Shown: piece after piece, positions 1,871 to 45,154 of the stretch
Numbering within the stretch: the stretch's first letter is position 1
Layout: each line of letters starts with the position of its first letter
Assembly (NCBI GenBank): GCA_947364595.1
Contig: CANATJ010000002.1
Coordinates: 1 to 51,960 of the forward strand
Source: an uncultured Bacillota bacterium
GTDB taxonomy: Bacteria > Bacillota_I > Bacilli_A > RF39 > UBA660
Direction: 5' to 3'
DNA length: 51,960 nucleotides
Notes under the pieces: model-generated
Told to the model about the DNA's origin: nothing
The model's database searches: none
What the model saw: the letters and a program-made list of their open reading frames with translations, nothing else
Made by a program: the position numbers and the translations under genes

Positions 1871-2401
1871 TTATATGTAATTTTCATCTACTTTTTCATC
1901 AATTTCCTTTAAAGTATCTTCATCAACATCATCGACAATTTCATCCCAAGGCTCTTCATCATCTTCAATTGCAATTTTAACTTTAGTTTCACCAACTATT
2001 TCTACTCCTAACTCTTTTTCAATGTTAAAAGTAATAGTCTTTCCGTTTTCAATATTTACACCTGAACATGTTGGTTGTTTCAAAGAACGAACAATAATAT
2101 CTGTATCAGATAAATCAGCTGATTCACGTAATCTTACATTAAATAAATCATTATACGCAATATTTTTATTAATAACTGTAGTCTTACTATCATTATCATA
2201 AGAATACCATATATTTATATCAAATGAGCCATCAACGCCAACTTGATCCCCAGATTTATAACCTTTAAACTTATGATTGATTACCCAACATCCAAGTACT
2301 GTAGTAGGTTCATGTTCTGTTTCTAAAGTATAATTGTTTTTAAAACTTTTTTTACCCTTTCCAACAACTGCCTTAGTTACTATTTCTTTATATGAAGCCA
2401 C
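1871..2401 (-). CDS. cotE: outer spore coat morphogenetic protein CotE
   Basis: The translation (ASYKEIVTKAVVGKGKK...LGCWVINHKF...DINIWYSY.DNDSKT...EIVGETKV..., acidic tail) is collinear with B. subtilis CotE. The probable start is the GTG at 2401, with RBS gaggggtga 6 nt upstream. Confidence 0.85.
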   Translation of the reverse strand: MASYKEIVTKAVVGKGKKSFKNNYTLETEHEPTTVLGCWVINHKFKGYKSGDQVGVDGSFDINIWYSYDNDSKTTVINKNIAYNDLFNVRLRESADLSDTDIIVRSLKQPTCSGVNIENGKTITFNIEKELGVEIVGETKVKIAIEDDEEPWDEIVDDVDEDTLKEIDEKVDENYI

Positions 2402-2419
2402 TAATATCACCCCTCACTT

Positions 2420-2473: not shown

Positions 2474-3142
2474 TTATTTCATTGTTTTAACAAGAGTTTT
2501 ACCTTTTGCTGTTTTTTTAATAGAACCAGTTGTACTTAAAAATTTTTCACCCTTATCAGTAATAGGCATAATCAAAAATCTTCTAAGATTAGCAGATGGT
2601 AATGTATTTTCACTAATTTTACCATCTACATCTGAAACATCTTGTAAAACAACTTCACCATCTTGATATAAATCACCATATCCTTGTTTACGACAAAGAC
2701 TTTCAGACATAGATTCAGAATCATTAATTCTTAAATAAATAAAATCTGTTTGTTGTTTTTTAGCAAGCTCATTTACAGTTTTTACCAAAGTACTACAAAC
2801 ACCATGACCACGGAATTGACTCTTAGTAGCAAGTCCATAAATATAAAGTGGTGTTAAAAACTTAACTCCTTCATGGAAATATGGACTATGTTCATCCTCA
2901 ACTTCATCCATAAGACCAGCATATCCCATAATTTCACCTTCGTTATTATAATAACCTAAAGCAAGACCATGATATACATAACCATTATATTCATCAATTT
3001 TATCAAATAAAGTTAATGGTTCACCATATGGTGGTTCTTTAAATACATCAATAATATCTGAAAAATCATCAAATTTAATAATAGGTTTAATCACCCCATT
3101 TTCCAAAACAATTGGTTTCATTGTATATAACTCATTCATCAT
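2474..3142 (-). CDS. GNAT-family N-acetyltransferase
   Basis: Contains acetyl-CoA motif A (QFRGHGVCSTLV). Its start overlaps the upstream stop (ATGA), suggesting translational coupling with the M20 gene. Confidence 0.65.
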   Translation of the reverse strand: MMNELYTMKPIVLENGVIKPIIKFDDFSDIIDVFKEPPYGEPLTLFDKIDEYNGYVYHGLALGYYNNEGEIMGYAGLMDEVEDEHSPYFHEGVKFLTPLYIYGLATKSQFRGHGVCSTLVKTVNELAKKQQTDFIYLRINDSESMSESLCRKQGYGDLYQDGEVVLQDVSDVDGKISENTLPSANLRRFLIMPITDKGEKFLSTTGSIKKTAKGKTLVKTMK

Positions 3143-4209
3143 TTTATCACTCCTTCTTTTAATATCTTTTTATAAATGTTATATAACTTAAGTAATGAAT
3201 CTTTTTCTACAAACTCGCCTGGGTGGTGAGCATAATCACCAACTGGATTCATCAAAACAGTTGGAATATTTTTAGCTGAAAAATAAATAGCATCAGAAGT
3301 AGACTCAGTCTTTGTAATTTTAGGCTTAAAACCAAGTTCTTTTTCACAAGCCGCCAAATACTCTTTAATATTATGATTATTAATATCAGTAGTAAAAGCA
3401 ATACCACTACCAACAATCTTAATTTCAATGTTTGGATTAATAGACTTAATAAAATTTATTATATTTTCTTTTAAATCACCAACAACATGACGTATATCTA
3501 AATACATTTTTGCATAGTCAGGAACTTGATTTAAAGCATCACCACCAATTAATTTAGAAAGATTAATTGATGTTTTATAATCTGCAGCATTAAGTGGTAA
3601 TGGATACTTTTCCAAAAGTTTTAAATAACAATCATATAAACTAGTTATCGCATTTACCCCATTATATGGTTGTGATGCATGACTAGATTTTGTTTTAATA
3701 GAAAGTTCAAGTTGCAAAAGTCCTTTTTCTTCAGCAATAAGTTCAAAATCTTTACCACCATCTGGAATAATAGCTAATTTAATATTAGGATATTTATCCA
3801 CCAAACATTTAGCACAATTACCAGCAATCTCTTCATCACTTGTAATAAATAAGGCAACCTTTTTATCAGTATCAAGGTTTTTAAATAAATGCAAGCACGC
3901 AGCTACAGCACCCTTCATATCAATAGCTCCACGGCCATATACTCTATCACCTTTTGAAACATATTTATATTCCTCACATGGAACAACATCAATATGTGTG
4001 CAAAAAGCTATATCAAAATCATCTAAAGCATTAGCAATTACTAATGAACCATATCCATCAAAGTCATATTCTTTAATTATTAAATCTTTAGGCATCATTT
4101 TACTAATATCATTTAATAATTTTTTTGATATATCTTTTTGATTAGAAACACTAGGTGTATCCATTAAAACCTTTAAAATTTTTAAAATTTCTTCTAAATC
4201 TTTATTCAT
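3139..4209 (-). CDS. M20-family metallo-deacylase (ArgE/DapE/peptidase-like)
   Basis: Contains the THIDVVP, GRGAIDMKG and SDEEIAG motifs. The ATG at 4209 is preceded by RBS aaaggagtt. Confidence 0.75.
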   Translation of the reverse strand: MNKDLEEILKILKVLMDTPSVSNQKDISKKLLNDISKMMPKDLIIKEYDFDGYGSLVIANALDDFDIAFCTHIDVVPCEEYKYVSKGDRVYGRGAIDMKGAVAACLHLFKNLDTDKKVALFITSDEEIAGNCAKCLVDKYPNIKLAIIPDGGKDFELIAEEKGLLQLELSIKTKSSHASQPYNGVNAITSLYDCYLKLLEKYPLPLNAADYKTSINLSKLIGGDALNQVPDYAKMYLDIRHVVGDLKENIINFIKSINPNIEIKIVGSGIAFTTDINNHNIKEYLAACEKELGFKPKITKTESTSDAIYFSAKNIPTVLMNPVGDYAHHPGEFVEKDSLLKLYNIYKKILKEGVIK

Positions 4210-4224
4210 AAGAACTCCTTTCAA

Positions 4225-4440
4225 ATATAATAAAACCTACGCTTGTATATGCGTAGGTTATTTAACATGAAATTACCAAATCCGCAGATACAAGCATCAC
4301 AAATAGTACTTGTATCCACGATATCATCGTTTAAACAAGTACTTACCTGCAGCGTCTGCGATTGTTGATTTGCAATAATTTCATAATATCAGCCTTTCTT
4401 TGACATTCACTAATATATATTAATTTAATAAACTTGTCAA
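4225..4440 (-). promoter_or_regulatory. sigma-A promoter plus a roughly 180-nt attenuator leader (anti-antiterminator, antiterminator and terminator) upstream of the M20 gene
   Basis: The promoter is TTGACA (4440-4435), a 17-nt spacer, then TATATT (4417-4412). The terminator is CCTACGC/GCGTAGG (4236-4257) followed by a U-run. The segment gCTTGTATcTGCG is nearly the exact complement of the terminator 5' arm plus loop (CGCAtATACAAGc). The long-range helices CGCAGA/TCTGCG and AGTACTTGT/ACAAGTACT would sequester it. Confidence 0.6.
4343..4384 (-). CDS. candidate 13-aa leader peptide MKLLQINNRRRCR
   Basis: RBS gaaagg lies 8 nt upstream of the ATG. Four of the last five codons encode Arg (CGC AGA CGC tgc AGG). 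These codons form one strand of the anti-antiterminator helix. Confidence 0.35.
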   Translation of the reverse strand: MKLLQINNRRRCR

Positions 4441-4465
4441 TACCTTTTAAAAATAAAAAGTAGTT

Positions 4466-5818
4466 TTATAAACTACTCTTATTTAAAATTAACTTTAATA
4501 AAATATCTTTAAAATGAGGATTATTAGATAATTTTGTATAAATAGAAACAATTTCCTCATCAGTTAAAGACTCTTCTGAAGTAAAATTAGTAACATCCAC
4601 TTTTTCAAAAACAGTGGCCTTTGTTTGTTTAACTTTAAAATTTATATTCGCAGTAACCGTTTCTTTTTCGTTTTCAAACTTTTTAATATTTAAAGTAACT
4701 TTTGATTTGTTTTTATTACCATCAATAATAATATTTCCATCATGTTTAACATTTTCCTTTTTATCAAAAATACTAAACATCAAATTCTTCTTACCCAAAT
4801 AGATTAAACTTAAATTATCTAAAGAACTTGAAACTTCAACTTTTAATAACTTATCCATTTTAGAATTTAAAAATAATTTAAACTCTACATTACCAGCTTT
4901 CTTAAATTCTTTCTTAAGAATTGGAAGTCTTCTTTCCAAAGCAGACTTTACATCATTTGCAGGTTTGTCCATAATAGTACTTAACGCTGATACAAACTCA
5001 TCATTTGATTTTATTGTATTAACAAATTCCTCTAAAACCCTATCTCTATTTTTATCATCAATAATACATTTTGCCTCATAGCCTTTAATATCTTCACCAT
5101 TAATATTTTGTGTTTGTTTACTACCAACTATTTTTTCGCTAGATAAAGATTTAGAAATAGCTTGATTTAAACCAGATAAAATTGGTTTAGATTCATATAT
5201 TTTATAAAATTTATTAAATCTAACTTGATTTTCAGTTTTGATATATTTATCAAACAATTGCTTTAAATATAAATATGTTCCCGTTTTATCATTATAAACA
5301 TTTATATCTAAAAAATCTTGACCTTCATATTTAGAAGTAATAAATGCTGAAGAAAGATTATTAGCACTATCATTCATATAATCAATCTTAAAATTCATTT
5401 TACTAAGTTCATTATAAAAATCTTTGTTTTCATCCAAACTTTTTATATCATAATTAATATCAACTTGACCAGACTTTATATCATAAACATCTTCACTAAT
5501 ATTATTAGCCAAAGCCTCAAAAACTGAATCAATAGTTGAAAAAAATATCGTCTTAGGATTACGATTAAAGAACATAAACACAAGTATAATTGAAATAGTT
5601 ATTATCAAAAACAAACAAAATAGCCAAGGTAACTTAGACATTCTAGCCTTATTTGAATTTGTAACAATATCAGTATAATCAATATCAAAATTTTCTTCTT
5701 TAGCATCTGCATCCATCAAGGAATCTTTATATTCTTCAAAACTTTCATTAGTATTTTCTTCAACCTTAGATACAAAATCATTTAACTTTTTACTATCTAA
5801 CTTGTTACTTTTTTCCAT
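4466..5818 (-). CDS. hypothetical single-pass membrane protein (acidic N-terminal tail, one TM, large extracytoplasmic domain)
   Basis: RBS aggagag. The TM segment is LPWLFCLFLIITISIILVFMFF. I recognise no motif. Confidence 0.6.
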   Translation of the reverse strand: MEKSNKLDSKKLNDFVSKVEENTNESFEEYKDSLMDADAKEENFDIDYTDIVTNSNKARMSKLPWLFCLFLIITISIILVFMFFNRNPKTIFFSTIDSVFEALANNISEDVYDIKSGQVDINYDIKSLDENKDFYNELSKMNFKIDYMNDSANNLSSAFITSKYEGQDFLDINVYNDKTGTYLYLKQLFDKYIKTENQVRFNKFYKIYESKPILSGLNQAISKSLSSEKIVGSKQTQNINGEDIKGYEAKCIIDDKNRDRVLEEFVNTIKSNDEFVSALSTIMDKPANDVKSALERRLPILKKEFKKAGNVEFKLFLNSKMDKLLKVEVSSSLDNLSLIYLGKKNLMFSIFDKKENVKHDGNIIIDGNKNKSKVTLNIKKFENEKETVTANINFKVKQTKATVFEKVDVTNFTSEESLTDEEIVSIYTKLSNNPHFKDILLKLILNKSSL

Positions 5819-44902: not shown

Positions 44903-45154
44903 AATTTCCTCCTTTAAATTTTAAAAAAATTCTATGAATGTAAGGACGAATAATCGCGTTGCCACCTTACTTCATAGAATTTCTATGCACTTAATTATCC
45001 TTAATGCAGATATACAAACAGCTCCAAGGTGCGTTCATAAAAATTTGCTTACCTAGTTTCCACTATCCTAGGCTCACTTTAAACAATTTACTTTTATTAC
45101 TATTCCTTTTCAATGCCTTGTGCTAATTATATAAAATTATATTCAAAAAGTCAA
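44903..45154 (-). promoter_or_regulatory. promoter plus T-box riboswitch leader with Arg (CGC) specifier, controlling argS
   Basis: The promoter is TTGACT (45154-45149), a 17-nt spacer, then TATAAT (45131-45126). Stem I carries the AGTGA bulge and a GTGGAAA distal loop. The specifier context is GAA-CGC-A (CGC at 45033-45031). The T-box sequence is AAGGTGGCAACGCG (44968-44955). The terminator is 44979-44930 plus U7. Confidence 0.85.

Follow-up and report, generated by a model that had tools for sequence, protein, structure and literature searches.

Introduction

The leader-peptide attenuators of enterobacteria, such as trpL, hisL, leuL, thrL and pheL (Rfam His_leader RF00514 and others), combine a translated short open reading frame (ORF) carrying a run of codons for a single amino acid with mutually exclusive anti-antiterminator, antiterminator and terminator structures; a stalled ribosome leads to read-through, and a lack of translation leads to termination. 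The present study concerns a window of 51,960 nucleotides, the whole stretch of DNA analysed (contig CANATJ010000002.1 of assembly GCA_947364595.1, from an uncultured Bacillota bacterium), in which the minus-strand element ahead of an operon encoding an M20 family metallo-deacylase and a GNAT N-acetyltransferase is very probably an arginine-specific, ribosome-mediated (leader-peptide) transcription attenuator. The window leader would be alike in principle to the enterobacterial systems, but it carries arginine codons, shows no sequence or covariance-model similarity to them, belongs to a low-G+C gut member of the Bacilli and has an uncharacterised deacylase–acetyltransferase pair as its target. 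To our knowledge, the classical leader-peptide attenuators do not include one for arginine, and in the literature, with incomplete coverage, we found no arginine leader-peptide attenuator of the terminator/antiterminator type and none before an M20-GNAT operon. An arginine attenuator would fill this gap, and would do so in a phylum with few such attenuators, most of them predictions. The evidence for it is computational throughout and comes mostly from metagenome-assembled genomes.

A first-pass annotation of this DNA had called leader peptides uncommon in Firmicutes, and they are indeed rare, though precedents exist. His leader-peptide attenuators are predicted for hisS*/hisZ in bacilli (PMC2965389), and a second report predicts His leaders for the his operons of the B. 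cereus group, Peptostreptococcaceae and Erysipelotrichales (PMC9413887). As described there, these systems share phylum and principle with the window leader but read His codons and control synthetase or his genes. In Listeria, ribosome-mediated attenuation of an amino-acid operon has been studied experimentally for the ilv leader (Rli60; PMC5864092), a Firmicute example that, unlike the window leader, carries branched-chain amino-acid codons and is unrelated in sequence. The leader of Salmonella speF, orf34/SpeFL, places a polyamine gene under several levels of control through alternative mRNA conformations, according to the abstract of that study (PMC6386406), and its consecutive Arg codons link arginine availability to the downstream gene, as is proposed here; it is, however, gammaproteobacterial, with no apparent common scaffold. 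Arg-specifier T-boxes (RF00230) respond to the same signal, tRNA-Arg charging, via a choice between terminator and antiterminator, but they bind the tRNA directly and need no translation, and the window leader lacks T-box features.

Architecture of the leader

The leader starts from a sigma-A type promoter of its own on the minus strand (4412..4440; TTGACA 4440-4435, 17-nt spacer, TATATT 4417-4412; 11 of 12 matches), which is the top-scoring site of the region in a promoter scan and whose TTGACA position is kept in orthologous leaders. A Shine-Dalgarno sequence, GAAAGG (4393..4398), lies 8 nt 5' of the ATG of a 13-codon ORF (4343..4384; ATG 4384 to TAA 4343), which is supported by sequence and conservation and encodes MKLLQINNRRRCR. 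It contains the codons CGC AGA CGC (Arg-Arg-Arg, 4352..4360), identified as regulatory by codon conservation, and a fourth Arg codon, AGG, at 4348-4346. An intrinsic terminator supported by scanning and covariation (4224..4259) has a 9-bp stem with five G-C pairs (4259-4251 x 4242-4234), an 8-nt loop (4250-4243) and a U tract (4233-4224), its stem ending 24 nt 5' of the M20 ATG (4209). Two terminator-like sites were found in the region, against 0.2 expected from shuffles. The first-pass annotation had read the promoter, the Arg-rich ORF with its ribosome-binding site and the terminator before the M20 gene directly from the sequence, and all of them are confirmed here.

The remaining parts of the leader form overlapping helices. 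By folding, the start codon and first ORF codons constitute the 5' strand of helix P0 (4367..4384), with GGAUUUGGUAAUUUCAU (4267..4283) as the 3' strand. The first two regulatory codons, CGCAGA (4355..4360), constitute by folding and pair counts the 5' strand of P1, an anti-antiterminator helix with UCUGCG 4288-4283. Downstream of the ORF lies the P2/P3 hairpin (4306..4342; folding and covariation), in which P2 pairs GUACUUG (4342-4336) with CAAGUAC (4312-4306) and P3 pairs ACGAU (4330-4326) with AUCGU (4322-4318). Segment B, GAUACAAG (4309..4316; covariation and ribosome-mask folding), overlaps the 3' strand of P2, and its partner when P2 is melted is 4294-4287 in segment C, so that the antiterminator is re-sequestered. 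Segment C itself is the antiterminator GCUUGUAUCUGCG (4283..4295), recognised by complementarity, pair counts and folding; written as GCTTGTATCTGCG, it shows complementarity to the terminator 5' arm and loop, CGCATATACAAGC (4253-4241; segment D), at 12 of 13 positions. This complementarity had been noted before, with the antiterminator placed about 7 nt from its actual position at 4295-4283. The earlier proposal that the antiterminator is locked in a helix with the ORF likewise stands with regard to P1 and P0, but it lacked one layer, namely the B:C hairpin that sequesters the antiterminator again once the ribosome is past the run. Segment B can thus be held in P2 or in B:C, C in B:C or in C:D, and D in C:D or in the terminator.

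The leader folds at -59.9 kcal/mol (z = -5.3 against dinucleotide shuffles; none of 200 shuffles equals it), and the default fold is a single long hairpin whose 5' strand is the whole mini-ORF and whose 3' strand includes GCUUGUAUCUGCG. The individual helices were calculated at -40.8 kcal/mol for the long hairpin, -17.9 for the antiterminator with 4253-4241, -14.7 for P2/P3, -13.3 for the terminator and -11.7 for B:C. Compared with enterobacterial attenuators, the window leader thus adds the P2 hairpin and a B:C hairpin that is released as the ribosome passes the run, and buries the whole ORF, including its start codon, in the default hairpin.

A long structured hairpin with such a z-score, together with strongly conserved internal-loop nucleotides (GAUACAAGU..UUU..GCUUGUAUC), would also suit a riboswitch or a protein-binding leader RNA that merely happens to contain the small ORF. 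Yet the three overlapping, mutually exclusive pairings account for the conserved blocks, and Rfam gave no match to the leader at gathering thresholds; a permissive E-value scan returned noise, the top match being frnS with 23 bits where the gathering score is 60. There is likewise no T-box match in 4150-4500 even at E-values of up to 10, whereas the T-box of argS elsewhere in the window scores 115.9 bits. The earlier reading, which had recognised no known riboswitch motif in the leader, agrees with the Rfam and covariance scans.

Conservation of the Arg codon run

Searches with the M20 protein and its profile yielded 52 M20 orthologue loci in species-representative genomes of uncultured gut Bacilli, some of them labelled Tenericutes, Candidatus Coprovivens or Clostridium sp. 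CAG:1193. The same leader, with promoter, Shine-Dalgarno sequence, short ORF with an Arg run, hairpins and terminator, is present at approximately 46 of the 52 loci, comprising all with a protein identity of about 45% or higher, and is absent from distant M20 genes at 46% identity and below (L048, L057-L061). In four species the gene order is GNAT-M20 and the leader lies upstream of GNAT, which indicates that the leader tracks the start of the operon rather than the M20 gene. Conservation of the mini-ORF and its Arg codons, which had been put forward as a check, is thus borne out at most orthologous loci, with synonymous turnover.

Among 47 leaders that were extracted and aligned, the GAAAGG or GGAG motif is conserved, and 46 contain Arg runs of three to five codons. 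The first run comprises three codons in 26 leaders, four in 18, five in two and two in one. The run codons are AGA (77), CGC (39), CGT (35), CGA (10) and CGG (1), from two codon boxes, and the only invariant nucleotide in the run is the middle G of two Arg codons, the base common to all Arg codons. Indels in the leader are in frame, such as a 2-codon insertion in L013, and ORF length ranges from 11 to 24 codons, with variable residues outside the run and at the C-terminus. These patterns show that the Arg run is conserved as a coding sequence and not just as RNA. Keeping of the Arg codons for P1 pairing alone was considered and rejected, because P1 lies downstream of the run in several lineages (L031 and L039-L042, for example) and RRR persists there. 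That ORF, Shine-Dalgarno sequence, frame and Arg run survive synonymous changes and in-frame indels also speaks against an incidental ORF in a ligand-binding or protein-binding RNA.

The composition of the genome sharpens this result. In the 36 long ORFs of the window, Arg accounts for 2.8% of codons, CGC for 1.3% of Arg codons (5 of 389) and AGG for 11.3%, in agreement with the earlier claim that the leader uses rare Arg codons, and RRR occurs once in 14,106 residues. Because CGC and RRR are so rare, the leader sequence CGC AGA CGC is far from chance composition. The mixture of CGN and AGA codons suggests that the leader samples both tRNA-Arg isoacceptors.

An Arg-Arg-Arg run also fits the R/K-X-R/K (+X+) motif at which macrolide-bound ribosomes arrest, and an Arg-Leu-Arg motif has been mentioned in antibiotic-resistance leader peptides (PMC8632094). 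An antibiotic-sensing leader of the erm/msr/vmlR type, in which arrest at RRR would induce a drug-modifying GNAT/M20 pair, could be served equally well by the switch architecture. However, an arrest motif would tolerate Lys, and Lys never replaces Arg, being absent in and beside the run in all 47 leaders despite a genome of 27.3% G+C that is rich in Lys codons. We regard an antibiotic-sensing leader as very unlikely. A nascent-peptide sensor of abundant free arginine or of a metabolite, of the type of the fungal arginine attenuator peptide, TnaC or SpeFL, with induction by excess, would be consistent with a short conserved peptide that has a fixed NNRRR-like core in the closest relatives, and we consider it slightly less probable still. 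Contrary to what such a sensor would lead one to expect, little of the peptide beyond the Arg run is conserved, and the leaders differ in its length and C-terminus.

Covariation of the alternative helices

Paired positions were counted on the 47-sequence alignment, and partners slid by one to three columns served as the control, in which 22-57% of cells paired. The terminator was paired in 99.3% of cells, with compensatory changes (both sides changed) at nine of nine pairs, P2 in 96.7% (five of seven pairs compensatory) and P3 in 85.6% (five of five). The B:C hairpin was paired in 96.8% of cells, with four of eight pairs changed on both sides, and the two halves of the antiterminator C:D in 86% and 72%, with eight of 12 pairs changed on both sides. 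The strong sequence conservation of blocks B, C and D can be attributed to each of them serving two exclusive pairings.

P0 and P1 are retained with differing sequences. Leaders paired with their own partner at -14.4 kcal/mol on average, compared with -7.0 for the partners of other leaders, and the own partner ranked within the top three of 47 in 30 cases. The register of P1 varies by lineage, although the helix always lies at or just past the Arg run. A crude longest-helix finder misassigned P2 and P1 in many leaders, and alignment-anchored measurements were used instead. The helix covariation that the first-pass annotation had proposed as a check was thus found in the terminator, antiterminator and sequestering helices alike.

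Ribosome position and the proposed mechanism

The end of the Arg run lies 8-9 nt before the first P2 pair in 34 of the 47 leaders (range 4-15 nt), and the stop codon falls anywhere from 7 nt before the first P2 base to 19 nt after it, never farther upstream. With the last Arg codon in its A site, a ribosome should therefore reach the foot of P2 without melting it, whereas a ribosome moving on to the stop codon must open P2. Ribosomes on given codons were modelled by masked folding of transcripts cut before the terminator 3' arm. Without a ribosome, the window leader formed the long hairpin with the terminator arm free. Placing AGA in the A site gave P2/P3 and the antiterminator, and placing UAA there gave the B:C hairpin, again with a free terminator arm. 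Across the 47 leaders, the median probability of capture of the terminator arm was 0.50 without a ribosome, 0.80 with the ribosome on the first Arg codon and 0.44 with it at least two codons past the run.

Considering these results, we propose that the leader works on the logic of trp/his attenuators, on a five-segment RNA switch transcribed from its own sigma-A promoter. In the absence of a ribosome, the whole mini-ORF would pair through P0 and P1 with the antiterminator C strand, and arm D, left free, would allow the terminator to form and to stop transcription 24 nt before the M20 gene. A ribosome translating MKLLQINNRRRCR would open P0 and P1. When charged tRNA-Arg is scarce, it would stall on CGC AGA CGC with its front edge abutting an unmelted P2; B would then be held in P2, and C would be free to pair with the emerging D, which would block the terminator and permit transcription of the M20-GNAT operon. 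When Arg-tRNA is plentiful, the ribosome would reach the stop codon at the P2 foot and melt P2, B would snap onto the adjacent C, and D would again be free for the terminator. We infer the kinetic order of these events, polymerase pausing and the response to arginine limitation in vivo. A conserved U-rich stretch directly follows P2 (4301-4305; alignment columns about 134-140, with one T invariant), and it is pure speculation that it serves as a candidate RNA polymerase pause site synchronising ribosome and polymerase.

Several observations weigh against an arginine attenuator. The capture difference has a Wilcoxon P of about 1e-8 that is uncorrected for the relatedness of the 47 leaders, and a clear effect (a difference above 0.2 in the expected direction) is seen in only 24 of them, with one or two showing the opposite. 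Equilibrium folds of the full leader give the terminator under every ribosome mask, so that the choice would have to be kinetic and made during transcription, as in classical attenuators. Transcription-translation coupling is poor in Bacillus-type Firmicutes, and a polymerase pause would therefore be needed. The sole RNA run containing the locus consists of low-depth contigs in which the promoter is covered too, and public RNA runs are uninformative on the leader, the species label of most apparently being that of the host. The fit of RRR to the macrolide arrest motif counts on the same side, as does the fact that the relatives are all metagenome-assembled genomes. Finally, the M20 and GNAT proteins are not demonstrably arginine enzymes, all NCBIfam matches being below cut-off and the GNAT fold match generic. 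In spite of these points, the trp/his-type reading of the Arg codons, first suggested from the sequence, is in agreement with codon conservation, covariation, ribosome modelling and the two comparative findings described below, a tandem Arg T-box and a His-codon twin.

T-boxes and other links to arginine

The window contains a T-box leader on the minus strand at 44939-45122 (Rfam, 115.9 bits) with CGC at the specifier position, followed on the same strand by argS (44902-43232; TIGR00456 equivalog, 350 bits against a cut-off of 262). This T-box served as the control for reading the specifiers of two further T-boxes (Rfam, 117 bits), which lie directly upstream of the Arg leader and M20 gene in two other species (L025 2116-2295 and L044 2122-2301). 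Both have their own promoter and their own terminator with a U tract, and at the same aligned position as in the argS T-box of the window, the specifier reads CGC. In these two species the operon is therefore also under a sensor of uncharged tRNA-Arg. The P0 pairing is nearly lost in the attenuators of the two loci (-3 kcal/mol).

A T-box switched on by uncharged tRNA-Arg in series with the leader contradicts induction at high arginine by a nascent-peptide sensor, and an Arg specifier in series in two species is equally at odds with antibiotic sensing. The M20 protein of the window points in the same direction as the T-boxes. It contains three Arg in 356 residues (0.84%), the lowest Arg fraction among the 36 long ORFs, and its orthologues contain only two to six Arg each, R93 and R240 being invariant. 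So sparing a use of arginine fits a protein that is needed when arginine is scarce and speaks against a sensor of its excess. The tandem Arg T-box, the rarity of CGC and the Arg-poor M20 protein are thus three independent links between the operon and arginine.

A His-codon twin of the scaffold

A genome scan for the B..C core (GATRCAAGT, 9-15 nt, GCTTGTATC) returned the Arg leaders, approximately 70 evidently chance matches and approximately 30 loci of a third kind, in which the codon run is His. The hosts of this His twin are C. neonatale, C. sardiniense, C. nigeriense, C. nitritogenes, C. puniceum, Paraclostridium ghonii and others, and uncultured Bacilli (Clostridium and allies: L103, L107, L111, L114, L116, L119, L122, L124, L140, L143, L146, L153, L159, L170, L171, L182, L183, L185, L197, L200; uncultured Bacilli: L150, L157, L188). 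As in the Arg leaders, a short ORF with a Shine-Dalgarno sequence carries a codon run located 6-9 nt ahead of P2 (..ACTTG..), and a terminator lies farther downstream. The codons are CAT CAT CAT, however, in a His-His-His(-His) leader ORF, for example MRTLNSIKQNRIHHHY, and the gene that follows is HisRS-like (Pfam tRNA-synt_His). Among the scan matches, HHH was associated with a HisRS-like gene in 26 cases and RRR with M20 in 13, and there were no crossovers.

The Arg and His versions share P2 ..ACTTG.., GATACAAGT, TTT and GCTTGTATC. The design of the scan guaranteed common B and C blocks, but it placed no such constraint on the ORF, on where the run lies, on the P2 5' strand or on the terminator. 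In the His twins of gut Bacilli, the 30-nt core differs from that of the window at only a few positions. Since the window leader has the layout of the hisS version but carries Arg codons and has an M20-GNAT target, it is a sister of that scaffold and not a member. Rfam gave no match for the His twins, and they may represent an undescribed hisS attenuator in cultured Clostridium species.

A ribosome-mediated attenuator specific for one amino acid predicts such a codon run, one that changes with the amino acid served by the gene it precedes, and the pattern is hard to reconcile with an RNA that binds a ligand or protein, because here a codon-swapped RNA serves another amino acid; we consider a riboswitch or protein-binding leader the least likely of the alternatives. 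The twin bears on the two peptide-based alternatives as well, as HHH is not an arrest motif of the kind that antibiotic sensing would require, and a twin ahead of an aminoacyl-tRNA synthetase gene does not fit a sensor of abundant arginine. In the best-supported interpretation, the window element is an arginine-specific leader-peptide attenuator that has an additional anti-antiterminator layer and uses the same scaffold as a His attenuator.

A broader hypothesis, which in our judgement could equally well prove right or wrong, is that one conserved five-segment chassis circulates in Clostridia and gut Bacilli, is retargeted by swapping its codon run (HHH/hisS having become RRR/M20-GNAT, and RRR also before two unknown proteins that are nearly free of Arg) and can be combined in series with a second copy or a T-box, the Arg version constituting an unrecognised arginine-starvation regulon and M20-GNAT a new route to arginine or ornithine in reduced genomes. 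The family would provide a clean natural experiment, with one scaffold, Arg or His codons according to the controlled gene, and tandem arrangement with itself or a T-box. A signal of charged tRNA-Arg shortage attached to the uncharacterised M20-GNAT operon and to two unknown proteins makes their function testable, and a compact switch of approximately 180 nt could serve as a programmable amino-acid sensor.

The regulated operon

The first regulated gene (3139..4209, minus strand) has a Shine-Dalgarno sequence AAGGAG at 4220-4215 and encodes an M20A family metallo-deacylase of ArgE/DapE-like type, with profile matches below every curated cut-off. A sequence search of the Protein Data Bank (PDB) with this protein gave weak scores to an unnamed M20 peptidase and to the acetylornithine deacetylase (ArgE) of E. 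coli. The earlier remark that the M20 family includes ArgE is thus appropriate with regard to the ArgE/DapE-like deacylase group, but assignment to ArgE itself is unproven, as the matches remain below the curated cut-offs.

The second gene (2474..3142, minus strand) overlaps the M20 stop by 4 nt and encodes a GNAT N-acetyltransferase of 222 aa with a generic GNAT fold. A PDB sequence search gave no match to this protein, and a homologue search found no named relatives. Its AlphaFold model (pLDDT 86) is matched equally by many GNATs at a TM-score of approximately 0.6, including arylalkylamine, polyamine and agmatine acetyltransferases, RimI and Nat enzymes. That GNATs are common as resistance enzymes, and that there are weak sub-threshold profile matches to AAC(3)-I and ArsN1, would favour antibiotic sensing, but no resistance family reaches its cut-off, and the operon is chromosomal and vertically conserved. 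The two enzymes could equally be catabolic or detoxifying, as induction by abundant arginine would suggest. With an arginine-starvation attenuator upstream, reasonable guesses are that M20 and GNAT form an ArgA/ArgE-like acetylation-deacetylation pair, or that M20 is a deacylase that salvages arginine or ornithine from N-acylated or peptide-bound forms. We infer a role of the enzymes in arginine supply, for which the Arg T-box in series and the Arg-poor M20 protein are indirect support.

Variants of the leader and neighbouring features

Two complete Arg attenuators occur in tandem before the same M20 gene at L023 2112-2483, L026 2166-2500 and L032 2097-2473, and likewise at L120 4760-5150 and L132 1500-1900. 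Each copy has its own ORF, switch and terminator, an arrangement that recalls tandem riboswitches. In the GNAT-first operons (L028, L035, L038 and L043), the leader is followed by two or three consecutive terminator-like hairpins instead of one. In the most distant leader-bearing loci (L045, L047 and L050), the stretch from the terminator to the M20 start includes a further small ORF, such as MNNLVRYNLRFFILRYFV or MINFNKLLVILLNTH. At L046, a degenerate leader (about 2300-2500) has CGA AGA AGA out of frame with any ATG and a mutated antiterminator block; either decay of the attenuator or an error of assembly may account for it.

A second operon with a near-identical Arg leader, MKIFMTTIIRRRRLRRHLRTR, is present in the same genomes as the M20 leader (L136 about 2650-2950 on the minus strand of the locus, L152 and L189). 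It encodes two paralogous proteins of approximately 290 aa, in which Pfam found nothing, and the first of these contains one Arg in 294 residues.

Upstream of the window leader, a hairpin with a T run (AGTAGTT..AACTACT; 4448..4478, minus strand), identified by eye and too A+T-rich for the terminator scanner, is a probable terminator of the upstream gene, which it would probably set apart from the promoter of the leader. Directly downstream of the operon lies a CotE spore-coat gene (1871-2410, minus strand), whose presence indicates that the organism forms spores, even though public records label close relatives 'Tenericutes'.

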